64,000 nt of DNA from Minisyncoccota bacterium (GTDB taxonomy: Bacteria; Patescibacteriota; Minisyncoccia; Phycocordibacterales; UBA6899): positions 24,683 through 88,682 of the forward strand of contig DATEZQ010000012.1 in assembly GCA_035583355.1 (NCBI GenBank), given 5' to 3'. A program made the position numbers and the translations under genes. Numbering within the stretch: the first letter of the stretch is position 1; each line of letters begins with the position of its first letter. Positions 9,403 to 43,799 of this stretch are shown here, piece after piece. The notes beneath the pieces were generated by a model that saw only the letters and a list, made by a program, of their open reading frames with translations, was not told the origin of the DNA and searched no databases.

Positions 9403-10230
9403 GTGCACAGTCACCCACTTATGAAATTCAGAAAAGCACTCGACAACCCACTCGTTGTATTCTCCTACATCTGGAGACATACCTACCAAAGACTTGTTGC
9501 CGACAAGGATGCAGACATTTATGGAAAAGTACGTTTCTTAAGCGAAACAGAAACTCTTGATGAGCTAATGAACCATAGTCGCTCTATGATTCGTGCAGGA
9601 GATGGGACGTTTGGATATCTCATGGGGGCGAGTATCTATTTCAATAATTGGCACTTTCGCTACAATCGTGCATTTGCGAGAATCCTCCTCTCGTCCCTTA
9701 AAGAAGCTGAGGCTGAGGGTATACTACTTTGCTTTCCCCATGAACAAATAACCCGAAAGAAAGAAGAATACCGATTGGCGAATATTCCCCACGAGTGGTC
9801 CATCTGGATTTCTGCGAAAATTCTTGCGAGGAAACTGCTTCGCGAAGGGTCTACATATGGAAACTCAATGTGCTTTCATCCGAAACACAATAAACACATA
9901 GACTTCCCCAGAATAAAGCACTTCCTTTCGACGCGACATGTCTATATCGTCACTTCTGGTGTTGAACGATTTACCGATATTAAGCTTGGACTAAGCACAA
10001 CCTTCATCGAGGCACCAGCTAATGACGCGTGGAGAGTCTATACACAGCTTGAAGATTCCGTACTTAGAGTAATCAGGACCAACGGCCACCAAAAGAACGA
10101 GGTGCTCATCATGATCTCAGCCGCAGAGGCAGCAAAAGTCATGATCCTTGATCTGCACAGGCAAGGTTATGTGTGCTGGGACACAGGGCAGTTCTTCGAG
10201 CTTGCATGTAAGCAAATAGCGGCACTCTAA
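9403..10230 (+). CDS. putative GT-D (DUF1792-like) glycosyltransferase / hypothetical
   Basis: GTG at 9403 or ATG at 9421. The pattern ETLDEL...RSMIRAGDGTF resembles the R-x-GDGE-F signature I recall for the DUF1792/GT-D family. The gene sits inside the glycan locus. Confidence 0.35.
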   Translation: MHSHPLMKFRKALDNPLVVFSYIWRHTYQRLVADKDADIYGKVRFLSETETLDELMNHSRSMIRAGDGTFGYLMGASIYFNNWHFRYNRAFARILLSSLKEAEAEGILLCFPHEQITRKKEEYRLANIPHEWSIWISAKILARKLLREGSTYGNSMCFHPKHNKHIDFPRIKHFLSTRHVYIVTSGVERFTDIKLGLSTTFIEAPANDAWRVYTQLEDSVLRVIRTNGHQKNEVLIMISAAEAAKVMILDLHRQGYVCWDTGQFFELACKQIAAL

Positions 10231-10244
10231 AGATTCACACTACG

Positions 10245-10275
10245 CAAAAAAACGGCCACCGAGTGGCCGTTTTTG
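10245..10275. terminator. bidirectional intrinsic terminator
   Basis: aaaaaaacggccaccgagtggccgtttttgc between convergent genes. Confidence 0.6.
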
Positions 10276-10279
10276 CTAT

Positions 10280-11212
10280 CTAGAGCGCACGGATAGAATC
10301 AAGCAAGCCAACCGACGGCTCCCAGCCGAACATCTTTTTCGCAAGAGCACTTTCGACGACAACTGACGCAAGAGCTCCTGGTGTAGATTCTTGCACAACT
10401 AAGGAGACTTTTGTATCAGTGACTTCTTCAACTGCCGCAATGACCTGCTTGAGCGTCGTCGCTTTCCCAGAGCCGACATTGAAAGTACCAGACGGGGCAC
10501 CAGGGAGTAACTGCATGAGCCTCAGCACATCACGAATATCCACGAAATCTCTGGCCATTGAACCATCACTCGTCGGGTGATGAATGCCAGAAAGCGTAAT
10601 TGGCTTACCCTTGCGAGCAGCATCAAGCGCGATATCAAGGAAAGTATTCACGCCAGAAGCAGAGGGGGCTGGCCCTACAAGATTTGCCAGTCGAAGTATT
10701 TGAAAATCCGAAATCCACTTCTTCTCAGCATACTCTTGTATGAAACGTTCGCCGAGCAGCTTAGTGAGCGCATACGTTGATGCTGGACCAACAGGACTTG
10801 ATTCATTGAGTTGTGCAACAGGAGTACATGAAGCATAGACCGCCCATGTCGAAGCGAAAACAATATGCTGCACGCCTGCGGCTTTCATCGCCGATAGGAC
10901 AGCACGTGTTCCGTCGATATTCACCGAGCAATACTCCAATGGTATCCGCTCACTCTCGCCAACATTCTTCAGGGATGCAAAATGAAAAACAGAGTCAACG
11001 CTGTTTTCAGTCATTATCTCTGCCAAGCGGCTTTCGTCCCGAATATCAGCGGTAGCATAAACAGCACCACTAGGAAGCCAGGCTGGAATCACCTTACGGC
11101 GCCCAAGCGCGATAACCCTGTCTCCTCGGGCGCAGCAAGCAACGGTGGCCGCAGAGCCGAGTGTGCCATCTGCGCCAGTAATGAGAATAACGCGTGTTTT
11201 GGTCATATTCAT
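10280..11212 (-). CDS. NAD-dependent epimerase/dehydratase (UDP-glucose 4-epimerase-like SDR)
   Basis: RVILITGADGTLGSA Rossmann motif, 310 aa. A shared bidirectional terminator at 10245-10275 serves it and the convergent upstream gene. Confidence 0.65.
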   Translation of the reverse strand: MNMTKTRVILITGADGTLGSAATVACCARGDRVIALGRRKVIPAWLPSGAVYATADIRDESRLAEIMTENSVDSVFHFASLKNVGESERIPLEYCSVNIDGTRAVLSAMKAAGVQHIVFASTWAVYASCTPVAQLNESSPVGPASTYALTKLLGERFIQEYAEKKWISDFQILRLANLVGPAPSASGVNTFLDIALDAARKGKPITLSGIHHPTSDGSMARDFVDIRDVLRLMQLLPGAPSGTFNVGSGKATTLKQVIAAVEEVTDTKVSLVVQESTPGALASVVVESALAKKMFGWEPSVGLLDSIRAL

Positions 11213-11299
11213 ATGATACTCCTAAGTATCTCAAATGAATATACTCCACAAACACAAGCGTTGCAAACGATAATTCTATCTGCTATAGTTCGAATACTT

Positions 11300-12250
11300 A
11301 TGATTACGGGAGAGCACATTTTCATTACTGGTGGAGCTGGATTTCTTGGGAAAAATCTCGTCCGACGCTACTACAAGGATAATGAAATTACCATCTACAG
11401 TAGAGATGAGGCAAAGCATTATTTCCTGAAGAAGGAGTTCCCAAAAATCCACTGTGTCATTGGCGACGTGAGAGATTTTGAACGTCTCAATAATGCGGCC
11501 AGGGGGTGCACGATAGGAATTTTCACCGCATCACTTAAGCAGGTGGAAGCAGTGGACGAGAATCCCGAAGTTGCAATTGAGACGATTATTCAAGGAGGAA
11601 TCAACTCTCGAAAGGTTGCAATCGCAAACAACTTCAAAGCAGCAACATTCATCTCGACAGACAAGAGTCGTGCAGCAACGACCCTCTACGGAGCGATGAA
11701 ATTCGTTGGTGGAGAACTTTTCATTCTCAATGCTGAAAGAGAAAAGCCACTACTCTCGGCGGTCATCTATGGCAACGTATTTAATTCTACAGGCTCCATC
11801 ATCCCACTCATCTGGGATGCTATCGCAAAAAATTACGAGCTTGCGCTCTACGGAGAAGAAATGACACGTTTCATGATCGAGATTGAGGCTGCAATCGATT
11901 GTGTTGAAGTCGCACTCAAGGATACAGGCGCAAGTATTGTCCCCGCCCTCCACTCTATGCGCATAAAAGACCTCTTTGAGATCTATGCTGAGCGCTTTGG
12001 CCTTCGCTACCACGTCGGAGTACCACGTATCTCAGAAAAGCTCCACGAACAAATGATTGCGCATGCAGAAGCACCGCGAACAAGCTTCAATCCAAGTACA
12101 AATATGTACAGGATTCACTACAAGGAGATATCCGGAACCGTGACACTTCCCATTGAGGGATACAGCTCAGAGCACCACCTCCTCACAAAGCAGGAACTGG
12201 ATGCCTTGCTCAAAAAACACGACTATTACAAAGGGAGTCCGTTCATGTAA
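11300..12250 (+). CDS. PseB/CapD-like UDP-sugar 4,6-dehydratase (polysaccharide biosynthesis protein)
   Basis: In-frame ATG at 11300 gives MITGEHIFITGGAGFLGKNLVRRYYKDNEITIYSRDEAKH, typical of PseB/FlaA1/CapD. The ORF-track N-terminus (10982-) overlaps the convergent gene and is rejected. Confidence 0.6.
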   Translation: MITGEHIFITGGAGFLGKNLVRRYYKDNEITIYSRDEAKHYFLKKEFPKIHCVIGDVRDFERLNNAARGCTIGIFTASLKQVEAVDENPEVAIETIIQGGINSRKVAIANNFKAATFISTDKSRAATTLYGAMKFVGGELFILNAEREKPLLSAVIYGNVFNSTGSIIPLIWDAIAKNYELALYGEEMTRFMIEIEAAIDCVEVALKDTGASIVPALHSMRIKDLFEIYAERFGLRYHVGVPRISEKLHEQMIAHAEAPRTSFNPSTNMYRIHYKEISGTVTLPIEGYSSEHHLLTKQELDALLKKHDYYKGSPFM

Positions 12251-12260
12251 CGTTTCTAAT

Positions 12261-12328
12261 AAAAAACGAACATACCTGTTCGTTTTTTTATTTAGTGGAA
12301 ATAAAAACGCCCACACCATGTGGGCGTT
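12261..12328. terminator. two adjacent intrinsic terminators between convergent genes
   Basis: aaaaaacgaacatacctgttcgttttttt and aaaaacgcccacaccatgtgggcgtt. Confidence 0.55.
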
Positions 12329-12347
12329 AACTGAACAAGATCTGAAC

Positions 12348-13202
12348 CTAGAGGTTCGCGAGACTTTCAGTGATGTAATCCCGAATAGAGCGCTCAGCTT
12401 TCCATCCGAACTCACCACGTGCACGCGCCACCTCTACTGATGCACCCATACGGTTACCAGGACGTGGAGGGAGCATCTCGATCGGGCGATTGAACATCTG
12501 CGCGATTTCGAGCACAGTAAAGGCCTCATCGGAACCGAGGCCATAATCATCCCCCTCTCCCTGCTCACCGACACACACGAGTCCACGCACGATGTCTGCA
12601 ACGTGTGTAAAATTTCTCTGCTGCGTGCCTGGGGCGACTACGGGAAGAGGCTTCCCTTCACGCGCAAATGTAAGATACTTCGCGATCAATGTCGCATATT
12701 GCCCTTCAGCAATCTCTCGTGGGCCATAAGCGTTGTAAAAATACGTGATCGCATATCTCAGCCCGTACCAAGAGTGATAATTACGCACCAGTTCAGTGTT
12801 CGCTGCCTTTGTCCAAGCATACGGACTCTGATCACGACCGAGACCACCATCGCCAAACTTTGTACTGCTCCCCGCATAGACGATTTTTGCGCCATGCTTC
12901 CTGCAGAATTCCAGAACAGCGAAGGTACCTCTTACGTTATAGTGATGGACTAATTGTATATCAGCAAAACTTTGTTCCACGCGCGAATACTCACCAAGAT
13001 GGAACACCAACTCGGGCTTTTCGTCGATGAGTGTGGCGATATGCTCGGTGTCCCCGCGGACGTAACGGGCGCCAGAAAAATGATTTGCCTGCGTGCCCGT
13101 GAAGTAATTGTCCAAAACGGTCACCTCATGCCCACGCGCAAGCATTGCCTCGACAAGATGTGAGCCGATAAAACCGGCGCCACCAGTAATGAGTACTTTC
13201 AT
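12348..13202 (-). CDS. NAD-dependent epimerase/dehydratase (SDR)
   Basis: MKVLITGGAGFIGSHLVEAML motif; 284 aa. Confidence 0.65.
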   Translation of the reverse strand: MKVLITGGAGFIGSHLVEAMLARGHEVTVLDNYFTGTQANHFSGARYVRGDTEHIATLIDEKPELVFHLGEYSRVEQSFADIQLVHHYNVRGTFAVLEFCRKHGAKIVYAGSSTKFGDGGLGRDQSPYAWTKAANTELVRNYHSWYGLRYAITYFYNAYGPREIAEGQYATLIAKYLTFAREGKPLPVVAPGTQQRNFTHVADIVRGLVCVGEQGEGDDYGLGSDEAFTVLEIAQMFNRPIEMLPPRPGNRMGASVEVARARGEFGWKAERSIRDYITESLANL

Positions 13203-15140: not shown

Positions 15141-16604
15141 TTAAGTTATGTCTTCCAAGTTGGAGTCCAACTCTATAAACGTATATTTCTCTGCTTCCGC
15201 ATCTACTTCCCTATTCGGATTAAATCCTTTCGAGAGTGCAATAATGAGTCCCGCAGCGCCGACAAAGAATGCGGCGAGGACCCAATATCCCCACACAGGA
15301 AAACGAAAGCCTTTTGTTACACTCGACATACTCCAGTCACCGAGTGAGGTTGCTGTCGTTGTCGCTGCCTTCCCCAAGACAGGTGGTTGCAGCGCAGAGC
15401 GTGCAAGCGCAAGCTGTGCTGAAGGATAACTATCAACAACAAGCTCCGCTTCGTCATCACTTCCTACAGCAGACATCAGTCTTCCATCAGCACGGAAGAG
15501 TGCGAGCGTCTGCTGCACATACATACCAGTGATGGCATTTGGAAATGTTGCCGCAACCTTCCCAAAGAGTTGTGTCTGCGGAGGAAAAGCAAATGACACA
15601 TTTCCATCACGAAGTGTCCAGCCGGAGATATCTATATCAACAGGAGAAATAATGGACACGTATCCATCAATCCCGGGAAGTGCGGTCACAATATGCACAT
15701 CTTGTGCAATCACTTGCGCTCGCGCGCGTACTTGTGTGCTCAGTCCCTTATATGCCGCAGTGACGATCACAGGATAGGTCCCTGGAAAACGATACGTATG
15801 TGTCACCGCAGTGCCTGTCGCAACCGCGCCGTCACCAAAGTTCCAAGTCACTACCGCATCAGGAAGCATTTCATCATGGAGACCACTTACACTTGCACGT
15901 AAAGCGGTTGGGATGTCTTTGTATATGCGCTCGTTTGAATGCACGACAATACGATAACTTTCACGAGTGACGGTAGTTTTATTTGTAGCAGAGGCACTGC
16001 CCGAAGAAGTACCTGAAACAGTGATGTCCTGCACATTATCTGGAGTATTCGTTGCACTCGATTCAATGACTGGAGTCGTATTATCACCACTTGTATTGTC
16101 CGAAACAGAAGAAGGAGTTGGTGCACCAGGTGTCCCCGCTGCGGTCACCCAGCCTGAGGTGCTGCGCTGCGCAGTTTCCTTCGAAGAGACACTGCCTCCA
16201 ATATTTTTCCAACTTACTCCCCCGATTACCTCATCCACGACTGCACCACTCGCATCGAGCAGATTGAGGGTCATGCCATCATTACTGAGGCCTGTCGAAA
16301 AAGAGGCAATAAGATCAGCAGGAATTTCTGGGATGACATTATCATTCGAACGTTCGATGAGATAGTAGCCGTCAGCCGCAATGGAACCAGTGAGCGCAAT
16401 AGAAATTTTTGCAGGCACGGAAACAATCTTCCAACCTGAAAGAGTAACATCAGAATTACCAGTATTGTGTAATTCAATCCATTCATTTGAAGAACCTGCA
16501 GAGGTTCCCATCCATGCGATCTCATTTATTTCGACAGCTGCAAAACAAACGCTTGGCAGCAAAAAGAGAACGCTCATCGCCAACATTCGATGTAACATAC
16601 ACAA
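15141..16604 (-). CDS. secreted lamin-tail-domain (LTD) protein with C-terminal TM anchor
   Basis: Signal peptide MLAMSVLFLLPSVCFA; the LTD signature is INEIAWMG...EWIELHN. It has Thr/Ser-rich linkers and a C-terminal hydrophobic helix. Confidence 0.45.
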   Translation of the reverse strand: MCMLHRMLAMSVLFLLPSVCFAAVEINEIAWMGTSAGSSNEWIELHNTGNSDVTLSGWKIVSVPAKISIALTGSIAADGYYLIERSNDNVIPEIPADLIASFSTGLSNDGMTLNLLDASGAVVDEVIGGVSWKNIGGSVSSKETAQRSTSGWVTAAGTPGAPTPSSVSDNTSGDNTTPVIESSATNTPDNVQDITVSGTSSGSASATNKTTVTRESYRIVVHSNERIYKDIPTALRASVSGLHDEMLPDAVVTWNFGDGAVATGTAVTHTYRFPGTYPVIVTAAYKGLSTQVRARAQVIAQDVHIVTALPGIDGYVSIISPVDIDISGWTLRDGNVSFAFPPQTQLFGKVAATFPNAITGMYVQQTLALFRADGRLMSAVGSDDEAELVVDSYPSAQLALARSALQPPVLGKAATTTATSLGDWSMSSVTKGFRFPVWGYWVLAAFFVGAAGLIIALSKGFNPNREVDAEAEKYTFIELDSNLEDIT

Positions 16605-16747: not shown

Positions 16748-18163
16748 CTAACCCTCTATCTCTACGATAGGAGGAATTTTCACTTTTATGGGACGAAATT
16801 CGCACTTCGGCGATCCTCCTCCCGCGCACTCCTTATCAACGATTACCTTCTTCAAGCGCGAGTTCTGCAACTTGAGATCGGGAACCGTAAATAAAACACT
16901 TTGCAGCCTCGCCTCGAGTGCTCCGCGGAGCCCGCGTGCCCCCATCTTCTTCGAGACCGCTTCTTCAACAACACTTGCAAGCACTTCTTCAGTGATTTCG
17001 AGTTCAACCCCAGCAATACGGAAAAGTTTTTTGTACTGCTTCACGAGTGAACTCTGTGGCTCGATGAGTACACGTTCGAGGTCTTGTCTTGAAAGCGCAT
17101 CGAGTGTTTCAATAACCGGAAAACGGCCACAGAACTCCTCAATGAAACCGTATTTGACAAGGTCCTCAGGAAGTACCTTCTTGCACGATTCCTGCTCTTC
17201 TGTTTTCTTCACAGACGAACTCATGAAGCCGATCTCTTTTGACGATTTTGGCGCACGCTTGATTTTATTAAGACCAGGAAATGCACCACTTCCGATGAAA
17301 AGAATATTTCTCGTATCCATGACACGCTCGAGCTTCGCGCCACTCGGGAGTGGCACTTCAAACGGAACATCCGCTCCTTCGATGATCTTGAGGAATGTCT
17401 GCTGCGCACCGATGCCGCCGACATCAGCGCCGCTGGTTGTTTCCTTGGCGACGATCTTATCGATCTCGTCAACACAAATGATTCCTCGGCCTGCAAGTGC
17501 GAGGTCACCCTCGGCCTGATAGAACAGCTGCCGGAGCGCATCGTTGGAATTCGCCCCAACATATCCTGATGCGGTCACCATGGATGCATCGATGGTTGCA
17601 AACGGGACTTCGAGGTACCGCGCGATTGCCTGCACGAGCAGCGTCTTTCCGCAGCCCGTCGGACCAATGAGGAGGACGTTCGATTTCTCGATGTTCACCT
17701 CCGCTCCTTGAGCCTTTGGATGCTTCAGGTCTTCGCTCTTGGCACGAATGCGCATGTAATGCTGCCAGACGGCGATTGAAAGTGCCCTCTTGGCACGCTC
17801 TTGTCCAATCACAATCTTGTCGAGCATGGCTTGAATGCGACCCGGAGTCATCTTCACGCTTTTGGCGCGAATCTGATTCGCATCTTCCTGAACCGCTTCG
17901 TCATCGAACCACTCAGCAAGACCATAGACGCAGTCCGCGCAAATGAGCGCGAAGCCCGTTGATTGTGCAACCTTCTTCTCTGGGTCGTACAATCCGACGA
18001 GTGTCAGCGCATCAAGAATGTACTGCTTCGCTTCTCCCTGAAAATTCTCTGCGATACAGGGTCCGCGCATCATTGCCTCTGAATCACTGCCACAGAAATA
18101 ACAGCGGCCGAATTGCGGTGGCACCATATCGACAGGTTCGATCTCGGGTAGGCCATCGTGCAT
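16748..18163 (-). CDS. clpX: ATP-dependent Clp protease ATP-binding subunit ClpX
   Basis: N-terminal zinc-binding CYFCGS...CADC, Walker A LIGPTGCGKTLL, IGF-like loop. The start is likely the Met at 18163, because GGAGGA lies within the first four codons of the 18175 ORF. Confidence 0.88.
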   Translation of the reverse strand: MHDGLPEIEPVDMVPPQFGRCYFCGSDSEAMMRGPCIAENFQGEAKQYILDALTLVGLYDPEKKVAQSTGFALICADCVYGLAEWFDDEAVQEDANQIRAKSVKMTPGRIQAMLDKIVIGQERAKRALSIAVWQHYMRIRAKSEDLKHPKAQGAEVNIEKSNVLLIGPTGCGKTLLVQAIARYLEVPFATIDASMVTASGYVGANSNDALRQLFYQAEGDLALAGRGIICVDEIDKIVAKETTSGADVGGIGAQQTFLKIIEGADVPFEVPLPSGAKLERVMDTRNILFIGSGAFPGLNKIKRAPKSSKEIGFMSSSVKKTEEQESCKKVLPEDLVKYGFIEEFCGRFPVIETLDALSRQDLERVLIEPQSSLVKQYKKLFRIAGVELEITEEVLASVVEEAVSKKMGARGLRGALEARLQSVLFTVPDLKLQNSRLKKVIVDKECAGGGSPKCEFRPIKVKIPPIVEIEG

Positions 18164-18285
18164 GTTGTCCTCCAAAAAGTACGCTCTATGCTAAAACTAC
18201 AAGGTTATTGGAGAGCGTCAAGAAAATATGCAGTACACATCACTATTTCAATGGTTAAAAAAACAATAGTCTTGCGACTATTGTT

Positions 18286-20742
18286 TTATTCATTATCTCC
18301 GAGCACCGATCTGAGCTGATCGAGCGGAACCTCTTTCGGCTGCTGCTTCTCCTCAACTGGAGTAGCAACAAGCTGCACTGGTGGCTCTACTCCATCACCC
18401 TCGAGAGCAGGTGCCGCTGCGGTTTTTTCCTGAAGTTTCTTTAGTGCTTCAGCAAGTGCATCAAGCTTCTCTGGGGTGGGACTCTTGTTATCAACACGGG
18501 GCGCCACATTGCGCGCCTCTGACTTTGCAAGTTCACGTTTGAGATTCTCCGTACGCGTGCGATCGACAGGACGTTCTGTACGCATGGAGTCCTTACGCTC
18601 TTCTTTCTTGCCATCATCACGGCGAGTATCCTCTCGTCGAGACTCCTCCCTACGGGGCTCGCGACTAGGAACTGACGGCGGTGCAACATGTTGCTGCGTA
18701 TGTGTCTTTGGACTTACTGGCACCACTACATATTGCGGCCCAAAGGCATGAGGTGACGGGAGCGGAGCTTGTGCAGGAGGATACGGATACTGCATCTGCT
18801 GCGAAGGATATTGCGGATACTGCGGCGCGTAATGCTGCGGATAATATGATTGTTGCGGCGGCGCAGGATACGGATACTGCGGCATTGGCTGCGGAGGATA
18901 ATAGTGTCCCGGCATAGCAGGTGGCAATGCGTAAGGATATCCCGGATGCTGAGGCTGCGCATAAGGAGCAGGATGATATTGCTGTGGCGGTGCGTACTGC
19001 TGCGGAGGCTGCTGCTGGTATTGCGGCGGCATCTGTTGCTGCGGCGCGGCATACTGCTGCTCCTGCTGTGGTTGTTGAGACGGGCGCTGCTGATCATATG
19101 AACCAAAGTTGTCTCGTGATCCCGCAGGAGCTGCATTCACGCGTGCAAGTGCATCACGCAATGCAGGGCCTCCCGGCATTGGTCGCTCACTCTGACGCGG
19201 TGCATACTGTGGTCGATCCTGTCCACCTCGATCATCACTACGCGGAACATAAGAAGGACGATCACCACGGTCGCGATCATTATCACGAGGAGGATATGAC
19301 GGGCGGGGACCTTGTCCACCACCATCACGTGACCCCGAAGAAGATCCTTCATAACGTGGTCGATCAGGACGTGCACCCGGAGAATATTTCTGCGTCTTTG
19401 GCGCATCACTAGTACTCCCCCCTTCTTTTACTGGCCTGAACCACACATTGATGTCGGCATCAACCTGTTCGCGTGGTCTTCCAAACTGCTTTCGGGAAGC
19501 ATCGATGACTTCTGCAAGATAGGTATGCTCGGGCATTGGCGGACGGTCTTCAGTGCGTGCGGAAAACGGAGCGGAACTTGCTCCACGGATCATGAGCTTA
19601 AGGTAGATCTGCGCAAAACCAAGGCTCACGAAATCATCAACAACGAATACTGGCGCAAATTCTTTCTCCAAAACTTCGGCATCCGTAGAACCCACACGGA
19701 AGGTGATCATTGTACCAACGTTTCCAAACACCGCGGAGCGCACTTCGTCCGTCATCTGATCAATATATTGATGTGCGATTGTGAGACAAAGTTTATACTT
19801 ACGTGCCTCAGAGAGAATATCCGCAAACGACTCATTCGCAAAGGATTGAAACTCATCGACATAAAGATAGAATGGTGGGAGTTCCTTGAGCTCTCCTGGC
19901 GTTACTTCGGCGCGGCTCATTGCAGCCAAATACATCTTCGTGATGAGCATAGCACCAAGGAGCGCAGCATTTCCTTCACCAATGCGGCCCTTACTCAAGT
20001 TCACAATGAAGATCTTTCGATTATCCATCATCCAACGAATATCGAATGTGGACTTCTCTTGTCCAACAATGTTACGAATGAGTGGATTTGCAGAAAATTG
20101 TCCAACCTTGTTTTGGATAGCAGATGCAGCTTCTGTTGCGAACTTCTCGGTATACTTCGCAAACTCATCTACCCAGAATGAACGCACAGAGGCATCTTTC
20201 ACGTTATTCACCACCATTTCACGAAAATCCTTGTCAGCGAACATACGATTCACACCAAGGAGTGTCGAGCCGGGAGTTTCAAGTAGTGCAAGGAGTGCAT
20301 TCGAGAGCAAGTATTCCATACGAGCACTCCATGCATCCACCCACACCTTCTTGAAAGCACCCATGAGCCCTGACGCAATGAGTGGTCGCTTCTCTGGTCC
20401 CATATCCTCAAGCACATTCATCGCAAGTGGATACTCCACATCAAATGGTGCAAAGTAGACGACATCATTCACACGTTCCTTTGGAACATACTGCAAAAGC
20501 GCCTCAGCGGTGCCTCCGTGAGGATCGATAAAACAAACTCCTTCCCCATTCTGAATATCTTGAATTGCGAGGTTTTCGAGCAAGGTAGATTTACCCATAC
20601 CCGTCTTACCGATGATGTACATGTGACGCGCACGATCCTCAGCACGAATGCCGAATTTCACGCGTTGTCCACGGAAGTCAGTTTCAGCGAAATAGGTAAT
20701 CTTTTCTTTGTCGTATTTCCAGCTCATAGTGGCGTTATACAT
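18286..20742 (-). CDS. TraD/TraG/VirD4-like (type IV coupling protein / HerA-FtsK superfamily) ATPase with long P/Q/Y-rich C-terminal tail
   Basis: Walker A IIGKTGMGKSTLLENL is followed by CFIDPHG. The C-terminal ~330 aa are a low-complexity proline/glutamine/tyrosine region (PQQYAPPQQYHPAPYAQPQHPGYPY...). Confidence 0.5.
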   Translation of the reverse strand: MYNATMSWKYDKEKITYFAETDFRGQRVKFGIRAEDRARHMYIIGKTGMGKSTLLENLAIQDIQNGEGVCFIDPHGGTAEALLQYVPKERVNDVVYFAPFDVEYPLAMNVLEDMGPEKRPLIASGLMGAFKKVWVDAWSARMEYLLSNALLALLETPGSTLLGVNRMFADKDFREMVVNNVKDASVRSFWVDEFAKYTEKFATEAASAIQNKVGQFSANPLIRNIVGQEKSTFDIRWMMDNRKIFIVNLSKGRIGEGNAALLGAMLITKMYLAAMSRAEVTPGELKELPPFYLYVDEFQSFANESFADILSEARKYKLCLTIAHQYIDQMTDEVRSAVFGNVGTMITFRVGSTDAEVLEKEFAPVFVVDDFVSLGFAQIYLKLMIRGASSAPFSARTEDRPPMPEHTYLAEVIDASRKQFGRPREQVDADINVWFRPVKEGGSTSDAPKTQKYSPGARPDRPRYEGSSSGSRDGGGQGPRPSYPPRDNDRDRGDRPSYVPRSDDRGGQDRPQYAPRQSERPMPGGPALRDALARVNAAPAGSRDNFGSYDQQRPSQQPQQEQQYAAPQQQMPPQYQQQPPQQYAPPQQYHPAPYAQPQHPGYPYALPPAMPGHYYPPQPMPQYPYPAPPQQSYYPQHYAPQYPQYPSQQMQYPYPPAQAPLPSPHAFGPQYVVVPVSPKTHTQQHVAPPSVPSREPRREESRREDTRRDDGKKEERKDSMRTERPVDRTRTENLKRELAKSEARNVAPRVDNKSPTPEKLDALAEALKKLQEKTAAAPALEGDGVEPPVQLVATPVEEKQQPKEVPLDQLRSVLGDNE

Positions 20743-20809
20743 GCATTATAGCACAATTGCATTATGGAAATAACAAAAAACCCGACCGAGAGGTCGTGTT
20801 TTTCTATCA

Positions 20810-22120
20810 CTATTGTGCAGCGGAAATCGGATTTGCGGGCTGGATATATGCAGCATCAGTATAACGATTCGATGGATCCCAAGCCATGTAGCTTTTTACA
20901 CCCACTTTCACACTGCTATTTATTTCTGCACGCACATCAGCCGCAGTATAAATCTTTCCATAATTGAAATCCTGAATCCAAGTTCTATACTTTTCGGGAC
21001 CAAAGCCCTTCGCCTTTGCACGTTCTACTGCCTTACCCATAACGAATTCCGTCAGTGGTCCGGGCACAGTATTTGGATCTTTCCAGTTATTGAAACCCTT
21101 TGGATAATGTGATGGATAGACCATAGGCGCAACAAAATCAAAGTGTGGGAGTATATCTTCGAGATATTGCCCAATACCAAGATCGTCACTTGCAGTCGTC
21201 ACCATACCAAAGATATCCACAGAAGTTGGGATCTTTCGAGAACGCATCTCCTCACCGATATAAGTGAAGAATGTCTTCATGACCATTTGCTTCGTTGTTG
21301 AACTATTGTGTGCAAAGGACATGTTTGCAAGATTTCCATCAGTTGGGAAGCGTACGTAGTCGAAGTTTACTTCATCGAATCCCGCATCATATGCGGCGAC
21401 AGAGACATCACGAATGTATTTCCAGAAATCTTTTGAACTTGGATCAACAAATGCGAGTCCTTTATTATCCTTCCATATTCCCCCGTTATCTTTGCGCTTC
21501 ACTGCCTCATTAGGATGATGATCAGCATAGTAAGGATCCTGCATCACTGCAACACGAGCAATGCGATAAATACCCTTTGCTCCAAGCTCAGCAAGGAACT
21601 CATGCATATCCTTCACAAGACAAGACTTGCCTCCAGTAGGAAAATTTGGATTCCCTAAGTCAACGGAGATGTACCCCGTATAGTCCTTCACATCGATAAC
21701 CAGTGCATTGAGGCTTGAATCTTCGAGCAGCTTTAACATAGGTGCACGCAAACCCGCACCACTTGCGATACAACTTGTCATATACGCTGCACGCACTACA
21801 TCTGGCGTTTTTTGGTGCACAACTATCGGGCGAGTCTTCGGCGAAGTAGTGCCTGAACTTGTGATACTTTGCGCAGAAATAGGAGCAACACCATCGGTTT
21901 TTACATCGATTGGCGTGACTGAGTTTTGTGTTGTCGATGCAGTCGACGATGCGTTCATTGCGGCATTGCGCGCCTCTTCTGCTGCAATCTCTTTTGCGAC
22001 CGCTGTGCGGTCATACGTTACTGTTGCGCCGCCACCAAACGCCATAGAGATCATCAAAAGTGCTGCCAGGATAAGTACTCCCAGCACAAAGTGCTTCATT
22101 GTAGAGGTTTCAGGTTGCAT
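20810..22120 (-). CDS. secreted putative glycoside-hydrolase-like TIM-barrel protein (DUF4015/GHL-like)
   Basis: N-terminal TM/signal sequence and Ser/Thr-rich linker. The conserved core (YxxxVDVKDYTG ... DEVNFDYVRFP) resembles DUF4015 putative glycosyl hydrolases. Confidence 0.35.
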   Translation of the reverse strand: MQPETSTMKHFVLGVLILAALLMISMAFGGGATVTYDRTAVAKEIAAEEARNAAMNASSTASTTQNSVTPIDVKTDGVAPISAQSITSSGTTSPKTRPIVVHQKTPDVVRAAYMTSCIASGAGLRAPMLKLLEDSSLNALVIDVKDYTGYISVDLGNPNFPTGGKSCLVKDMHEFLAELGAKGIYRIARVAVMQDPYYADHHPNEAVKRKDNGGIWKDNKGLAFVDPSSKDFWKYIRDVSVAAYDAGFDEVNFDYVRFPTDGNLANMSFAHNSSTTKQMVMKTFFTYIGEEMRSRKIPTSVDIFGMVTTASDDLGIGQYLEDILPHFDFVAPMVYPSHYPKGFNNWKDPNTVPGPLTEFVMGKAVERAKAKGFGPEKYRTWIQDFNYGKIYTAADVRAEINSSVKVGVKSYMAWDPSNRYTDAAYIQPANPISAAQ

Positions 22121-22128
22121 GAGGAATA

Positions 22129-22746
22129 TTACGAGTGAGTCTCTGCACGCGAGTCCTCAAATGAATTTGTATTTGGCTGAAAGGGTACATCTGCGGGCTG
22201 TACCTGTGCTTCTTCGCTTAACGTGACACGGGCTACATTCTTTCGTACGCGACGCGGTGTCGTCGGATGCGCATATGGGAGTGTACTCGTTGCTGCAGGA
22301 ATCTCATATTGCGGAGTTGCGGGCTGTGCCATGCGTGCGCGCTTGCGGACAGGCGTTTCGATTGGTGATGGAATCACATACTCAGACTGTCGCTCTGCGA
22401 CAATGACGGGAGTGAAAGCTTCTTCCTTCGGATGCGCAACGGGAAGCTCCTGCATCGATGGAACAAAAGGTGAAGGTTTTGCATCGGGGAGAGCATTAGT
22501 TTTTTCCTGCGGAAGCATCTTTGGGCGCTTCGAAAAAAGCAATACTGCGGCCATAAAAAGTCCGAGCACTGTAGTTACGTAGGTATCGATGGAATGGGAA
22601 AATCCAAACCAAGGAAAAGCAGCGATAACGAGTGCGATGCCGATGAGAAGTTTGCGTGCCATACTCGTATTATAGAGTATGTTCTTGTTTTCTTCTAATG
22701 TGGATAGCGCACGTCCATAGGATAAATGAGTTCCGTCAATGACCAA
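22129..22746 (-). CDS. hypothetical membrane protein
   Basis: Hydrophobic helices (LLIGIALVIAAFPWFGF...LGLFMAAVLLF); no recognisable motifs. Confidence 0.35.
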   Translation of the reverse strand: MVIDGTHLSYGRALSTLEENKNILYNTSMARKLLIGIALVIAAFPWFGFSHSIDTYVTTVLGLFMAAVLLFSKRPKMLPQEKTNALPDAKPSPFVPSMQELPVAHPKEEAFTPVIVAERQSEYVIPSPIETPVRKRARMAQPATPQYEIPAATSTLPYAHPTTPRRVRKNVARVTLSEEAQVQPADVPFQPNTNSFEDSRAETHS

Positions 22747-22789
22747 TTTTCATGTAACAAAAATGTTCTCCGTGGGGAGAACATTTTTA

Positions 22790-23470
22790 CTACATTTGAT
22801 TGATTGCGACCACGAATTCACCTCGGACTTTGTCCGGATGGGCAGCGTAATAGGCACGCACTTCCGCTGCGGTACCAATCTGTACTTCCTCAAACATTTT
22901 TGTGAGTTCTCGGCAGGCCGCAACTTTCCGATCTGCGGGAAGATACTTCTCGAGCGACTCAAGTGTCTTTTCGATACGGTGCGGAGATTCGTAAAATACT
23001 ATCGTGCGCTCTGTTTCTGCTATTTCTTTAAAGAGTGTCTCTCTCCCCTTCTTGTGCGGGAGAAAACCGAGAAAAAGAAACTGTGCTGAAGAGAATCCTG
23101 TCGAGACAAGCGCGGTGAGGAGTGCGGAAGCACCCGGAATTGCAATCACCTGCACGTCGGGCAGATGCTCACGTACAAGCTGGACAAGGAGTACCCCAGG
23201 ATCTGAAAGCGTCGGAGTGCCCGCATCAGATACAAGTGCGAGATCTTGACCGTCACGGAGAAGCTCAAGGATATCATCATGTTTCCCTGAACTACTCTGT
23301 GCGTGGTAGCTCATCGTCGGTACATGGATATCATATTTCGCGAGCAGATTCCTCGTCACGCGCGTGTCCTCACAAAGGATCTTATTGACCGATTTGAGGA
23401 CATTTAGCGCCCGCAGCGTGATATCTTCGAGGTTGCCAATTGGAGTAGAGACTATATATAGTGTCGCCAT
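22790..23470 (-). CDS. rsmI: 16S rRNA (cytidine1402-2'-O)-methyltransferase RsmI
   Basis: LYIVSTPIGNLEDITLRAL...ILCEDTRVT motif of the tetrapyrrole-methylase-fold RsmI. Confidence 0.85.
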   Translation of the reverse strand: MATLYIVSTPIGNLEDITLRALNVLKSVNKILCEDTRVTRNLLAKYDIHVPTMSYHAQSSSGKHDDILELLRDGQDLALVSDAGTPTLSDPGVLLVQLVREHLPDVQVIAIPGASALLTALVSTGFSSAQFLFLGFLPHKKGRETLFKEIAETERTIVFYESPHRIEKTLESLEKYLPADRKVAACRELTKMFEEVQIGTAAEVRAYYAAHPDKVRGEFVVAINQM

Positions 23471-31278: not shown

Positions 31279-32397
31279 TCACTTCCCCATCTTGCGCAAC
31301 GCAAGACCGAGGGAAACGGCAAATTCTGGACCCGCATCAGCAAGATATGGAGCAAGTGCAGGAGGAGTGGTTAAACGTGAGAAACTATCACTGTAGACAA
31401 TTTCACAATCAAAACCTCCACGGGCTACGTCGGGGAGCCCCTTAATAAGTGAGCCTGCACCACAGAGAATCACACGACTCATAGTGACATGATGCTGTTG
31501 CGCATAGCGACGAACGATACGGACTGCTTCACCCAAGATACGCTCGATTGCAAGGCGTGCGATTTCGGCGATTGCGGGATCATTCGGATCTCCGATAAGA
31601 CCATACTCACGCTTCATCTCTTCTGCTTGGAGGAGCGTCACTCCATGCGCACGTGCAAGTGCCTGGGTCACTTCCTGCGAACCAACGGAGAGTAAGTGTG
31701 CGCCACGCACCACGCCATCTTCAACAAGCACAAGCTTCGAGGATGCGGCACCGATATCGAGAATGGCAACAGGCTGACTTTCGCGACCCATGACGGCGCG
31801 AATCGTACTGAATGCCTCGATCTCAAAGGAAGCGGTTTTTGCACCGAGCCCTGTAGCGATGTCTTGGAAGCGCTTCAAAATGTCGTTGTGCACTGCCGCG
31901 AGGAGCACGTCTACCTTTGGTGGACCATTCTTATTGCGTTCTTCTTCATCAGGATCAACATAGTTACGGACGGCCTTTGGAATCACCCAGTGCGAAAGTG
32001 AAACTTCGTTCACATTCATTGGAATATATTTGCGCGCTTCAATAGGCACAATCTCTGCGAGCCGCTTCTCACCAACATCAGGAAGTTCGATCACCGTAAG
32101 CAATGTCGAAGAAAGTGGAAGCGAAAACACCATGTCAGTCGAAGTCACGTTCGCCTCCTTAAAGAGTCCGCGCAATGCTTCAACAATAGTAGGGACAGGA
32201 AGATTGAGTGCTGCCTGGCCGACTTCTACGCCGGCATAAGGTCCAAGTGCAATCTCACCATAGGTCTCAAGAATTGGCTTTGGACTACCGCGCTTTACCT
32301 GCAATACCTTCGCCGAAGAACCGCCGATGTCCACACCGACGACGCTCGCACTCGATTTGTCTCCAAATAAATTACCAAGTTGTTCGAGAAAGCTCAT
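31279..32397 (-). CDS. pilM: type IV pilus assembly ATPase-fold protein PilM
   Basis: Start MSFLEQLGNLFG at 32397. The actin/FtsA-like motif VVGVDIGGSSAKVLQV is typical of PilM. Confidence 0.75.
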   Translation of the reverse strand: MSFLEQLGNLFGDKSSASVVGVDIGGSSAKVLQVKRGSPKPILETYGEIALGPYAGVEVGQAALNLPVPTIVEALRGLFKEANVTSTDMVFSLPLSSTLLTVIELPDVGEKRLAEIVPIEARKYIPMNVNEVSLSHWVIPKAVRNYVDPDEEERNKNGPPKVDVLLAAVHNDILKRFQDIATGLGAKTASFEIEAFSTIRAVMGRESQPVAILDIGAASSKLVLVEDGVVRGAHLLSVGSQEVTQALARAHGVTLLQAEEMKREYGLIGDPNDPAIAEIARLAIERILGEAVRIVRRYAQQHHVTMSRVILCGAGSLIKGLPDVARGGFDCEIVYSDSFSRLTTPPALAPYLADAGPEFAVSLGLALRKMGK

Positions 32398-32507
32398 TTG
32401 TACTCTATTATACAGGGAGAAAATGCAGAATGCCAGTGAAAATCCAGTCATGAGACATGAGCTTGAGTCATGAGGGAATTCAAAAGTAGACATCACCCAC
32501 TTCAAAT

Positions 32508-32828: not shown

Positions 32829-33479
32829 TTAATGCGCTACTGCGATACCTATCACTTTTTTGGCTCCTGCCTTCTTAAGCAACGCCCGTGCTGCCCGCAT
32901 CGTCTCCCCCGTCGTCACCACATCATCAATGATGACCACATGCTTACCCTGCACGCGCTCAGGATGTTCGACAACAAATGCATCTTTCATATTCATCTCA
33001 CGTGCGCCACGACTCGCGGTCTTCACCTGCTGCCCCGCGCAACATGCCTTCTTTAGCACATCAATCTCCGCAACAATATTAAGGTCATGGGCCTTTGCCG
33101 CCTTCACTACGCCAAGCGCAATCTCAGCGGCATGGTTGTACCCCTTACGCTGATTGCCCTCAATACTTCCAGGAATTGGAATAAGTACAATCTCACCCGC
33201 CTCCTCGGGCTTACGTGCCAACGGTGAAAAGAATTCACGATACAGTGCATTACCAAAGTAATCAGATACTCCGCGGCAGTGACGATATTTGAGATCCTTA
33301 ATCGCCTTATTCACAATCGGTTGACGATACTCAAAGAGCGCAACAAGCCAATCCCCAAGCATCGTCGGCTTCGTAATGATTGTGCGCTCACAAAAAGCGC
33401 AAAGGCTTGCGCCCTTACGGTTACATGCGATGCATTGCTCAGGATAGAGCGCTTCCACAATCTCCGACCACCAACTCAT
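32829..33479 (-). CDS. comF: ComF-family competence protein (phosphoribosyltransferase domain)
   Basis: Start MSWWSEIV at 33479. It has an N-terminal double Cys zinc-ribbon (CIACN...CAFCE) and a C-terminal PRTase motif VVIIDDVVTTGETM. Confidence 0.7.
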   Translation of the reverse strand: MSWWSEIVEALYPEQCIACNRKGASLCAFCERTIITKPTMLGDWLVALFEYRQPIVNKAIKDLKYRHCRGVSDYFGNALYREFFSPLARKPEEAGEIVLIPIPGSIEGNQRKGYNHAAEIALGVVKAAKAHDLNIVAEIDVLKKACCAGQQVKTASRGAREMNMKDAFVVEHPERVQGKHVVIIDDVVTTGETMRAARALLKKAGAKKVIGIAVAH

Positions 33480-33582
33480 ATAGATAGAGCATACGACAAA
33501 AATAGAACGGCGCAAGTTTTCCCAGCAAAAGGAGCAAATGAAAAAACAGAATGCATTGCATTCTGTTTTAATCATACATAGA

Positions 33583-34422
33583 TTAGCGTCCAAAGAGTCG
33601 GAACATCCAACCAAAGACACTGAATCCACCCTCATGAACGGTAAGTGACGTACTTGCAGCAAGATTCACGTCTTGAAGCAATTTGATCTGCGTATCAATA
33701 ACTGCTTGATCTGTACCTGTAGCCATGCGCGTCTTCAGATCTGCAAGCAACTTGATCTGTGCCTCATTGCTTGCGACAAGCTGCTTTGCACTCTCGATCT
33801 CTGCCTGGTCTGGACCAAAGAAGAACTTACGAATCGCTCCGCGCTCCTCTACCTTCTTGAGGCTCTCGCTGATCTTCTCATGATTATCCTCTTGAGACTT
33901 TGCGATTGTGCGCACCTGCGCTCCGATACCCCCTTCGCGATCAGCAACGCTCAAGAGCTCCTGTACTGCCTTTGCAACAGTACTGCGATGCTCTTCGCGC
34001 GTACGTTCACCTCTTGTTGAAGTTGCGGAGTCATCCTCATCATCCTCACGTGAGGACGTAGCGAACTTATCATCATCACGCTCTCGAGATGAGGTTGCCG
34101 ACTTACGACCCTCTTCTCGCTCACGCGTTGAGGTCCCCTGGACATCATCGTCATTACCATCATCACCACGCCTCTCTCTATTCTCCATCTCGACGCGAGC
34201 TCTTGTTGTTGTCGCAGTGAGGCGAACATCAACACGATCCTCATCGTCACGCTCACCCACCTCTTGTGGTCGTGGAGTGCGTCCTTCGACAGAAATATTC
34301 GTCTTAACCTCGAGGTCTCCCTCGACTTTTGTCTGCGTGAGTGTGCGCTCCGCAGCAAGCGCGCTGCCTGCAGCAAAAAGCGCAACACCGAGTAACCCGC
34401 TAATGAATATTGTATTTTTCAT
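33583..34422 (-). CDS. secreted highly charged (R/E/D-rich) low-complexity protein
   Basis: Signal peptide MKNTIFISGLLGVALFAAGSALAA, then a long R/E/D-rich region; no known domain. Confidence 0.4.
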   Translation of the reverse strand: MKNTIFISGLLGVALFAAGSALAAERTLTQTKVEGDLEVKTNISVEGRTPRPQEVGERDDEDRVDVRLTATTTRARVEMENRERRGDDGNDDDVQGTSTREREEGRKSATSSRERDDDKFATSSREDDEDDSATSTRGERTREEHRSTVAKAVQELLSVADREGGIGAQVRTIAKSQEDNHEKISESLKKVEERGAIRKFFFGPDQAEIESAKQLVASNEAQIKLLADLKTRMATGTDQAVIDTQIKLLQDVNLAASTSLTVHEGGFSVFGWMFRLFGR

Positions 34423-36409: not shown

Positions 36410-37609
36410 ATGACGACAAAGACCGCGCAATGTGACAACTCCATTGTAGCAAACATTAGCGAATATGCCTTGCGCTCACGTTTTGAATATATATTCATTA
36501 TATGGTATGCTCTCCCCTATATGCTATTGTTTTCACTTGAACTCACATTCCTCATCATATTCGCAATTTTGCAGCTCCCACAGTTTGGAAAAGCACCTGG
36601 CGGAAGGCGCAAGAGTCGCATGCTACAGTCAGAGAACTATAAACGCGGGAAATTCCACAATCTTGAACCGACTCCGATGATGATCAAGACCGGTGACCAA
36701 ATCGACATCTTCAAGAAATTCTTTTTCAAGAACGTGGGCGATGCGAAACCAAAGACGCGCATGCCGGGAGTAAAGATTGATCTCCATGCATTCGACCCAA
36801 AAGCGAACGTTATGGTCTGGTTCGGACACTCCTCGTATTTCATCCAACAAGATGGGAAGCGTTTTCTCATTGACCCCGTACTTTCGGGATATGCGTCACC
36901 CTTCTCCTTTGCGGTGAAGAACTTCGCAGGTTCAAACGAGTACAGTGCTGCAGATATTCCCGACATTGATTATCTCGTCATCACTCATGATCATTACGAC
37001 CACCTCGATTATCACACTGCAAAAGCACTCAAGGGTAAAGTGGCCATGATCATCACAGGGCTTGGTGTTGGTGCACACCTCGTACACTGGGGATATAAAG
37101 AGTCGCAGATTAAGGAACTCGACTGGCATGAAGAGCTAAAACTTGATGAAGGATTCACCATCCGTGCACTTCCCTCCCGTCACTTTTCGGGCCGTACGTT
37201 CTTCCGCAATCGCACGCTCTGGTGTGCGTTTGCACTCAGTACCCCTAACAAGAAATTCTTCCTTGGTGGCGATGGTGGGTATGGCAAACATTTCAAGATG
37301 ATCGGAGAAAAGTACGGACCATTTGATGTTGCAATACTTGAGAATGGGCAATATAACGAGAGCTGGCGCTACATCCATGCGATGCCCGAAGAGACTGCAC
37401 AAGCGGGGCTCGACCTTGGCGCAAAACTCCTTATGCCTGTCCACTGGGGTAAATTCATCCTTTCTATTCACAGCTGGGATGAACCGATCCGCCGCATCAC
37501 CAAAGCAGCAACTGCAAAAAACATTCCCCTCCTCACTCCCCGCATCGGAGAGAAGATCAACCTCGACCACCCCGCACATACGCATCCTTGGTGGGATGAA
37601 GTAAAATAA
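36410..37609 (+). CDS. MBL-fold metallo-hydrolase (Lactamase_B_2 / NAPE-PLD-like)
   Basis: HDHYDHLD zinc-binding motif and conserved QFGKAPGG N-region. The true start may lie downstream of an N-terminal TM at 36533. Confidence 0.65.
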   Translation: MTTKTAQCDNSIVANISEYALRSRFEYIFIIWYALPYMLLFSLELTFLIIFAILQLPQFGKAPGGRRKSRMLQSENYKRGKFHNLEPTPMMIKTGDQIDIFKKFFFKNVGDAKPKTRMPGVKIDLHAFDPKANVMVWFGHSSYFIQQDGKRFLIDPVLSGYASPFSFAVKNFAGSNEYSAADIPDIDYLVITHDHYDHLDYHTAKALKGKVAMIITGLGVGAHLVHWGYKESQIKELDWHEELKLDEGFTIRALPSRHFSGRTFFRNRTLWCAFALSTPNKKFFLGGDGGYGKHFKMIGEKYGPFDVAILENGQYNESWRYIHAMPEETAQAGLDLGAKLLMPVHWGKFILSIHSWDEPIRRITKAATAKNIPLLTPRIGEKINLDHPAHTHPWWDEVK

Positions 37610-37961: not shown

Positions 37962-38020
37962 CAAAAAGAAAAACAACACGCAAGTGTTGTTTTTCTTTTT
38001 GCGGAGACGATGAGATTCGA
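37940..38020. repeat. 81-nt perfect palindrome spanning the tRNA-Ser 3' end, a terminator hairpin and an inverted copy of the tRNA 3' end
   Basis: gttcgaatctcatcgtctccgc + gcaaaaagaaaaacaacac-gcaa-gtgttgtttttctttttgc + gcggagacgatgagattcgaac. Confidence 0.7.
37959..38003. repeat. 43-bp direct repeat DR-left (second copy 39657-39704)
   Basis: gcaaaaagaaaaacaacacgc(a/g)agtgttgttttt(c/g)ttttt is about 40/43 identical between the two copies. Together they bracket a 1.65-kb two-gene module. Confidence 0.55.
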
Positions 38021-38023
38021 ACG

Positions 38024-38200: not shown

Positions 38201-38246
38201 ACTAGTAGCTCTCCAATTCTCTTAGTCTTAACTAGCCTCCTTGCCT

Positions 38247-38690: not shown

Positions 38691-38694
38691 ATTA

Positions 38695-39471: not shown

Positions 39472-39656
39472 ACTTAAATTCTATCATGTACTTGCATAAT
39501 CTAAAGTCTAGAATTATTGCGCACCAATCTATTGAATTAGAAGTGCTACGGCCTTTTTGAAAGTGTGGCTAGAAATACCGACCCGCGAGCCTCATAAAAC
39601 GGATCAATATAATCCAAAATAACCTTACAGTACCTACGCCCACGATTACCTCACTC

Positions 39657-43797: not shown

Positions 43798-43799
43798 TA

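Follow-up and report, generated by a model that had tools for sequence, protein, structure and literature searches.

The gene described here encodes a predicted ATPase with a long disordered tail, on a 64,000-nucleotide stretch of DNA (the window) from a Minisyncoccota bacterium (assembly GCA_035583355.1, contig DATEZQ010000012.1, positions 24,683 to 88,682 of the forward strand). The host is an ultra-small bacterium of the candidate phyla radiation (CPR/Paceibacteria). The open reading frame (ORF) occupies positions 18286–20742 of the window on the minus strand and codes for 818 residues counted from the first ATG, the numbering used below. The product is 100% identical to a deposited 813-residue NCBI protein (P0001) from a Candidatus Paceibacterota metagenome-assembled genome, where it is annotated as a type IV secretion system (T4SS) DNA-binding-domain protein. 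Translation probably begins at the second ATG (20727), giving an 813-residue product with the N-terminus MSWKYDK, since homologues start with MSWKYDK and an extended −10 promoter-like box, TGcTATAAT (20745–20753, minus strand), stops 2 nt before the first ATG. This box was read by eye and is a putative element; a consensus promoter scan did not report it, as there is no −35 box at 16–18 nt. A start at 20727 would leave a very short leader downstream of it. A terminator-like hairpin, AACAATAGTC-GCAA-GACTATTGTT followed by a T-run, overlaps the stop codon (18253–18287, minus strand, read from the sequence), and the inverted repeat at this stop codon was also found by a terminator scan, on the opposite strand. 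A hairpin-plus-T-run scan placed another terminator after the upstream DUF4015 gene (20783–20796, minus strand). Because terminators lie both upstream and over the stop codon (18260–18287), together with the −10 box, the gene looks monocistronic in the window genome, with its own putative promoter and terminator at the level of sequence consensus.

The N-terminal part of the protein is a folded core (residues 1–440, 19423–20742, minus strand) with a RecA-like nucleotide-binding domain and an all-α insertion. The Walker A P-loop, GKTGMGKST (residues 45–53, 20584–20610), and the Walker B motif, FYLYVDEF (residues 291–298, 19849–19872), were read from the sequence on the minus strand, and the family alignment holds G45, K46, G48, G50, K51, S52 and T53 invariant in the former and F291, L293, V295, D296, E297 and F298 in the latter. 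In the AlphaFold2 (AF2) model the all-α insertion spans residues 119–240 (20023–20388, minus strand) and comprises eight helices between strands 94–97 and 244–248. Four Pfam profiles clear their gathering cut-offs modestly: PF10412 (33.4 bits against a cut-off of 20.5), PF02534 (23.8 against 20.1), PF12696 (23.8 against 22) and PF01935, also above its own cut-off; the names matched are TrwB_AAD_bind (E 3e-8), DUF87, T4SS-DNA_transf and TraG-D_C. These matches agree with the description of the gene in an earlier note, made from the letters of the window, as a TraD/VirD4-like ATPase, and speak against its assignment to an unrelated family. The core belongs to the P-loop ATPases of the FtsK-HerA superfamily and bears an all-α insertion. 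It has features by which type IV coupling proteins (T4CPs) are recognised, namely the nucleotide-binding domain with Walker A and B motifs and a profile match, and the inserted all-α domain.

The top NCBIfam matches are TraD models; the TraD and VirD4 models score far under their equivalog cut-offs, and the ATPase is therefore not an orthologue of any named T4CP. In a phmmer search against PDB sequences, TrwB aligned only around the P-loop. The AF2 model of residues 1–445 (predicted local distance difference test, pLDDT, 84.7; predicted template modelling score 0.87) superposes on TrwB over 348 residues. The predicted fold places the protein in the VirB4/VirD4/HerA branch, and it is only the sequence profiles that favour VirD4/TraD over VirB4. 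We did not find in this protein and its surroundings the combination that marks VirB4/TraC (an N-terminal CagE_TrbE_VirB domain ahead of the ATPase domain), HerA helicases (an N-terminal HAS barrel and a NurA or defence-effector partner) or FtsK/SpoIIIE (an FtsK_SpoIIIE motor, a gamma domain and an N-terminal membrane domain). A role as a defence system was rejected: PADLOC gave generic P-loop matches only, and its mad8 profile also matches the neighbouring ClpX-like protein. Neither a signal peptide nor a transmembrane segment is present in the window ATPase, whose highest 19-residue Kyte–Doolittle hydropathy is 1.38, at a site inside the fold.

The remainder of the protein is a C-terminal tail of 373 residues (446–818, 18289–19407, minus strand), recognised by composition, Uversky hydropathy, pLDDT and divergence. 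The earlier note had made it a tail of about 330 residues, one third of the protein, with its boundary at 19300; that a long tail is present stands, while its extent is larger, at 46% of the whole protein with a start near 19407. Compared with 25 other genes of the window, the tail is enriched in Pro (18.2% vs 4.6%, binomial p 3e-22), Gln (12.1% vs 2.9%, p 2e-15) and Tyr (6.7% vs 3.2%, p 5e-4), and it contains no Ile, Trp or Cys. The most frequent tripeptides are PQY, PQQ and PPQ, and the dipeptide DR occurs seven times. Composition changes along the chain, from a block rich in Arg, Pro, Gly, Asp and Ser (residues 446–545; Arg 17%, Asp 12%) to one with 42% Gln (546–590), one with 30% Pro, 14% Gln and 14% Tyr (591–700) and a last one of mixed charge, with Glu, Arg and Lys (701–818). 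Pro, Gln and Tyr together make up 77% of the densest 60-residue stretch, whereas every other window ORF of at least 100 residues stays at or below 30%. The Pro/Gln/Tyr-rich, low-complexity character described in the earlier note is borne out for this protein.

Three low-complexity stretches can be delimited within the tail, all on the minus strand: an Arg/Gly/Asp/Ser/Pro-rich block with RD and DR dipeptides (residues 463–523, 19174–19356; composition, pLDDT below 50), which has indels relative to the two closest homologues, a Pro/Gln/Tyr-rich block (546–700, 18643–19107; composition) and a mixed-charge Glu/Arg/Lys block (701–748, 18499–18642; composition) with a predicted helix at 731–744. Mean hydropathy of the tail is 0.338, below the Uversky boundary of 0.417 and so on the disordered side, and that of the core is 0.482, on the folded side. 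AF2 gives pLDDT below 50 over most of the tail (residues 466–528, 536–688, 690–730, 745–753 and 778–799). Composition and pLDDT both show the tail to be intrinsically disordered, as had been supposed, and it lies in the cytoplasm, since the protein has neither a signal peptide nor a transmembrane segment. Tandem Repeats Finder returned nothing meaningful in the tail DNA, and the tail is therefore not a recent expansion. Six ORFs of at least 80 residues overlap the tail in other frames or on the opposite strand, between 18441 and 19412. They are by-products, as the earlier note had it, because the motifs conserved in homologues sit in the main frame only.

Alignment of the tails revealed four short motifs (A–D, all on the minus strand) within this sequence. 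Motif A, DAPKTQKYSPGARPDRP (residues 446–462, 19357–19407), is an aligned block directly after the core, with the consensus P(E/K)T(K/R)K(Y/F)(A/P)PGxRP; it is alignable in the closer half of the family and was matched by a regular expression in 64% of 118 homologues. Motif B, GGPALRDALARV (524–535, 19138–19173), overlaps an AF2 helix at 529–534 and is specific to a subclade, being alignable only in P0002–P0007, P0053 and P0056. Motif C, RVDNKSPTPEKLDALAEALKKLQEK (749–773, 18424–18498), is a conserved amphipathic helix with the consensus (S-L-L-K-x3)-K(K/R)DKGP(S/T)xExLxxL(K/R)xAL. Over 61 sequences L763 is invariant, and at least 90% keep K753 and L767; a loose regular expression found the motif in 109 of 120 sequences, and AF2 predicts a helix at 757–775 (pLDDT ~88) amid otherwise unstructured sequence. 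Motif D, KEVPLDQLRSVLGDNE (803–818, 18289–18336), is a conserved acidic-hydrophobic helix near the C-terminus. Its consensus, (K/R)E(V/I)PE(D)xL(R/K)xxL, covers residues 803–814 and ends a few residues short of the C-terminus; at least 90% of the aligned sequences retain E804, P806, L810 and L814, 94% of the 118 homologues match by regular expression, and AF2 predicts a helix at 807–814 (pLDDT ~74). A search of the other window ORFs found no further copy of motif D. Minor clades end otherwise, either in ...ERSPF or in I-x-PG-[DE]-x-I-x-F.

We compared the rates of change along the gene between the window gene and its two closest relatives (L084 and L085), using nonsynonymous divergence (dN) only because synonymous sites are saturated (proportion of synonymous differences ~0.7). 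The core has a dN of 0.03 and the whole tail 0.27–0.37, some ten times more. Within the tail, motif A (0.05–0.13) and motif C (0.05–0.15) are 5–10 times below the surrounding linkers; the Pro/Gln/Tyr block reaches 0.24–0.37, and the charged block and the linker between motifs C and D reach 0.35–1.0, with the charged block (701–748) at 0.65–0.75 among the fastest-evolving parts of the protein. Low complexity, low hydropathy, the lack of a fold and rapid divergence with indels, together with conserved islands, are the marks of a disordered tail carrying short linear motifs, and this tail shows all of them. The feature of the tail that the family conserves is the set of short motifs in fast-evolving disorder, and not the Pro/Gln/Tyr composition.

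The family is large. A word-indexed search returned at least 8,000 homologues, and when 1.84 billion cluster representatives were searched exhaustively, 22,033 matched at E ≤1e-3 and 5,949 at E ≤1e-30. The gene occurs in at least 596 species-representative genomes, the best 80 of which underlie the counts of genome loci given here; these 80 belong to the Lloyd-, Yonath-, Zambryski-, Taylor-, Nomura-, Kaiser-, Adler-, Campbell- and Niyogibacteria and similar Parcubacteria/Paceibacteria lineages. Among the homologues from the word-indexed search the core is 67–94% identical to that of the window protein, with 158 invariant columns. By comparison, VirD4-type T4CPs are reported to share only 15–20% identity with one another (PMC7434980), and the clade therefore looks like a core cellular one and not one of mobile elements.

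The earlier note had allowed that homologues might lack the tail and that a frameshift might have produced it here. Tails were present in 118/118 of the closest anchorable homologues (115–527 residues, median 270) and measured mostly 82–354 residues at the 80 genome loci, and the motifs are conserved in frame up to the stop codon, which rules for a genuine tail on both counts. A few relatives of 420–456 residues seem tailless, which is no proof of tail loss because at least one of them is flagged partial. Median contents over the 118 tails are 15% Pro, 5.7% Gln and 1.1% Tyr. A combined Pro, Gln and Tyr content above 30% was found in ~10 of the 118, that is, in the small subclade of the window protein, so that the composition emphasized in the earlier note is confined to this subclade; some relatives within it carry Gly/Gln/Tyr or Asn/Gln/Gly/Tyr repeats instead.

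Relatives with ~50% core identity, at least one of them assigned to Patescibacteria, share the phylum of the window protein and differ from it in architecture. They carry one N-terminal transmembrane helix (hydropathy 1.6–1.9, against the maximum of 1.38 in the window ATPase) and a domain of ~350 residues ahead of the ATPase, which a precomputed assignment identifies as PF26449, DUF8128. Their C-termini are also different: the anchored paralogues P0178, P0184, P0188, P0206 and P0213 end in I-x-PG-[DE]-x-[IV]-x-F and not in motif D, an ending shared with one of the minor clades above. They lie beside T4SS pilin genes, as in L086, where two DUF8128-ATPase genes (10001–12826 and 20701–22826) flank a T4SS pilin gene. 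The possibility that the window gene is one half of a split gene was rejected, as the N-terminal DUF8128 extensions from five anchored paralogues, used as tblastn queries, had no match in the window, and neither a further copy of the core nor any paralogue or DUF8128-like gene is present there. Some distant relatives of ~1,200 residues (P0217, P0232 and P0267) contain two tandem ATPase cores per polypeptide.

We propose, as on balance the probable reading, that the gene encodes a chromosomal, highly conserved, anchor-less ATPase of the T4CP type, with a disordered tail that serves as a tether in the cytoplasm and displays docking motifs. To judge from its structural relatives, the core would form a ring-shaped hexamer with ATPase activity. 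The tail, which drifts fast in length and composition between lineages and is here Arg/Asp-rich and then Pro/Gln/Tyr-rich, would present a constant set of docking elements, namely motif A after the core, the amphipathic helix C and the acidic-hydrophobic helix D near the C-terminus. It might work like a fishing line with which the ATPase ring recruits a partner (a substrate, an adaptor or a membrane receptor), the low-complexity blocks serving mainly as spacer. The tail of TraD, which binds TraM, and that of DotL, which binds adaptor proteins, offer a model for such recruitment. Because the relatives are all tailed, with the same terminal motifs, the tail is probably a flexible partner-catching arm and not junk.

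Several observations weigh against this proposal. The N-terminal transmembrane domain of T4CPs, with two or more helices in the VirD4 type, is missing from the protein. Neither the scanned window ORFs nor five annotated neighbourhoods (L001–L003, L084 and L085) include a T4SS or relaxase gene, and the genetic linkage to virB4 or a relaxase that characterizes T4CPs is not seen among them. A profile of motif C had no significant match among PDB sequences (best E-value 0.07), and a Pfam scan of the tail by itself matched no family. Finally, the Pro/Gln/Tyr block may be more than a passive spacer, because its sub-blocks HPGYPYALPP... and QYVVVPV are kept among the closest relatives, within the subclade. 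The most fitting description of the ATPase is that of a divergent T4CP paralogue lacking a transmembrane domain, and not of a bona fide coupling protein.

We compared the protein to known systems with related cores or tails. F-plasmid TraD matches the same core profile families (PF10412 and PF12696) and has a long flexible cytoplasmic C-terminal extension with a short motif at its end; this conserved acidic-aromatic peptide is a docking site, its last residues binding TraM (PMC7555446). TraD, however, has an N-terminal transmembrane domain and is plasmid-borne, among tra genes with a relaxosome partner, whereas the window protein is soluble, chromosomal and highly conserved, with a tail two to three times longer that bears two or three motifs, and with no TraM-like or relaxase gene nearby. 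TrwB (R388), DotL/IcmO and Cag-β share the all-α insertion in the nucleotide-binding domain, while their sequence identity to the window protein is just 12–16% and the window protein lacks a membrane anchor. The C-terminal domains of T4CPs vary from one protein to another, are acidic, and bind adaptors or substrates; VirD4 is an example, and so is DotL, where the C-terminal extension binds adaptors (PMC7434980). A closer likeness in architecture is the recognised T4CP subfamily without a transmembrane domain in the classification of Llosa and Alkorta, which has the nucleotide-binding and all-α domains and for which a separate membrane protein has been postulated (PMC7434980). Its known examples occur in conjugative elements, whereas the window clade belongs to the core chromosomal genes of Paceibacteria and has a long disordered tail.

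The layout of the window protein also resembles that of two proteins whose folds are unrelated. In FtsZ (a C-terminal linker and peptide) and SSB (a disordered linker and an acidic tip), a folded NTPase or DNA-binding domain is likewise followed by a linker that varies in length and composition and by a short conserved peptide at the end to which partners dock, and the FtsZ C-terminal peptide docks FtsA, ZipA and ClpX. FtsK, which belongs to the same ATPase superfamily as the window protein, has a long linker rich in Pro and Gln, with a different order of domains. The motif D family consensus, KEVPEDVLRKVLAD, can presumably be likened to the FtsZ C-terminal peptide DIPAFLRKQAD, although the likeness is loose and needs gaps.

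Next to the ATPase gene lie genes that are all on the minus strand. The upstream neighbour encodes a DUF4015 putative glycosyl hydrolase (20810–22120, Pfam E 2.9e-80), which is directly upstream of the T4CP-like gene in 22/65 related loci. Beyond it are a small membrane protein that matches no Pfam family and is Pro-rich in its C-terminal half (22129–22746) and an RsmI-like methylase (22790–23470); L084 and L085 have a similar-sized gene without a Pfam match at the position of the former. Downstream are a ClpX-like AAA+ ATPase (16748–18175; Pfam AAA_2 and ClpB_D2-small), a surface protein with LTD and PKD domains (15141–16604; Pfam LTD and PKD), whose transmembrane helix near the C-terminus is followed by a short cytoplasmic end, EKYTFIELD..., and then a uracil-DNA glycosylase gene. 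Gene order around the ATPase is exactly the same in the two closest relatives. The ClpX-like protein has a long N-terminal region with widely spaced Cys pairs. Its gene stands between the ATPase and LTD/PKD genes only in the closest clade (L001, L002, L084 and L085) and is downstream of the ATPase in 0/71 more distant loci; we therefore rejected ClpX as a functional partner and regard its gene as a local insertion.

These immediate neighbours take the place of the type IV pilus and competence system beside which the earlier note had located the gene: PilM (31279–32505), a ComF-like gene (32829–33662) and a metallo-β-lactamase-fold gene (36410–37609), all from the ORF scan, are 10–18 kb away. 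Elsewhere in the window, positions 38000–44000 have a GC content of 0.36–0.41 against ~0.48 in the rest and may be an acquired island; this stretch holds a DUF2326 gene (39798–41564) and a SMEK-domain gene (41779–42738).

Other explanations of the tailed ATPase were weighed against the tether, and three of them, a membrane partner, a condensate and a conventional T4SS, are compatible with it. The first, which we regard as possible yet doubtful, is that the ATPase, lacking its own N-terminal transmembrane domain, is held at the membrane by the LTD/PKD protein, through the tail motifs or the core, in a module independent of T4SSs that might serve, for example, uptake or export across a single membrane. 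LTD/PKD genes start less than 200 bp downstream of the ATPase, often overlapping it, in 37/78 loci (among those noted are L010, L013, L014, L018, L025, L026, L038, L040, L047, L064, L065, L069, L073, L074, L078 and L079), and in the window clade only clpX intervenes. Their products combine a signal peptide and extracellular LTD and PKD domains with a transmembrane helix at the C-terminal end, after which ~21 of 38 carry a conserved acidic-aromatic cytoplasmic motif, [YFW]-x-I-[IVE]-[ED]. In five loci where the ATPase has a variant ending (...ERSPF and similar), the LTD/PKD motif is missing in all; these loci come from one clade, however, so that they are not independent instances of co-variation. 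An unidentified membrane protein has been postulated for T4CPs that lack a transmembrane domain (PMC7434980), and adjacency and the conserved cytoplasmic motif, which together form the evidence here, make the LTD/PKD protein a candidate for that part. On the other side, the two genes are adjacent in only about half of the loci, which inherited gene order could explain, and in the window clpX and terminator-like hairpins separate them.

An unlikely second explanation is that the tail is a condensate scaffold, in which Arg-rich and then Tyr/Gln/Pro-rich segments would act as stickers and spacers in a prion-like manner and, displayed six-fold on a hexamer, would drive phase separation or clustering in this subclade. 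The Tyr–Arg sticker grammar and the condensates of SSB provide the background for it. The order of the segments fits, with 17% Arg in residues 446–545 followed by 11–14% Tyr and 14–42% Gln in 546–700, and the repeats of close relatives, such as GGYQPQGGGQGGYQPQGG in P0005, resemble FUS-type low-complexity domains; the conserved Tyr/Pro sub-blocks mentioned above point the same way. The median Tyr and Gln contents across the family are too low for condensate formation to be a family-wide function.

It is likewise rather improbable that the protein is a conventional coupling protein of a Patescibacteria T4SS encoded away from virB4, with a tail that recognises secreted substrates. The profile matches to T4CP families suit this explanation, T4CP genes often lie far from virB4 (PMC12102498), and C-terminal domains of T4CPs recognise substrates or adaptors (PMC7434980). 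Yet the DUF8128 paralogues, which have a transmembrane segment and adjoin T4SS pilin genes, look like the T4SS-linked form, whereas the window clade has no transmembrane segment at all and is conserved far beyond the range of VirD4-type T4CPs. Furthermore, in S. epibionticum the t4cp gene, which may belong to another clade, was dispensable although the T4SS was essential (PMC12102498).

A more far-reaching possibility, to which we give a slim chance, is that the anchor-less ATPase ring is not part of a secretion system and would be the motor of a hitherto undescribed envelope module specific to Paceibacteria that moves a macromolecule, for example DNA, across the one membrane that surrounds these host-dependent cells, its tail (maybe a condensate in the Pro/Gln/Tyr-rich lineages) being tethered to the cytoplasmic motif of the LTD/PKD protein. 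A TonB-like tail that spans the envelope or is exposed at the surface, one of the roles raised in the earlier note, is very improbable: the sequence is extended and Pro-rich, but the protein has no membrane-crossing or export signal, its ATPase core must be cytoplasmic, and the conserved motifs stand at the far C-terminal end with no anchor. That the tail is an artefact of frameshift, mis-assembly or read-through appended to an ordinary ATPase of ~440 residues is hardly credible, for although low-complexity DNA keeps many frames open and a few relatives seem tailless, the closest homologues are all tailed in the same frame with motifs C and D at the end, both closest relatives align over the full tail, and a putative terminator follows the stop codon.

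The preferred reading, of an anchor-less ATPase with a tether that displays docking motifs, bears on a question already raised for this phylum. Orphan T4CP homologues of Patescibacteria have been published, with 5,713 homologues in 2,918 genomes of which 148 are near virB4, and their exaptation to other functions was left open (PMC12102498); disordered C-terminal extensions of T4CPs are also known. What is new here is the delineation of a soluble clade, the motifs conserved in its tail, and the finding that an LTD/PKD gene, with a conserved cytoplasmic motif in its product, recurs beside it. The finding is an informative variant and no new kind of system. It sets apart, among the thousands of orphan coupling-protein homologues of Patescibacteria whose role is an open question (PMC12102498), a clade that is soluble and conserved like a housekeeping gene, unlike the DUF8128 paralogues beside T4SS pilins. 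The Tyr/Gln/Arg-rich versions of the tail could be used for the study of bacterial condensates, and the protein adds a further bacterial case of a folded NTPase joined by a variable linker to a terminal peptide. For the family itself, the tail motifs are handles with which partners may be sought, and the LTD/PKD neighbour is the first candidate.

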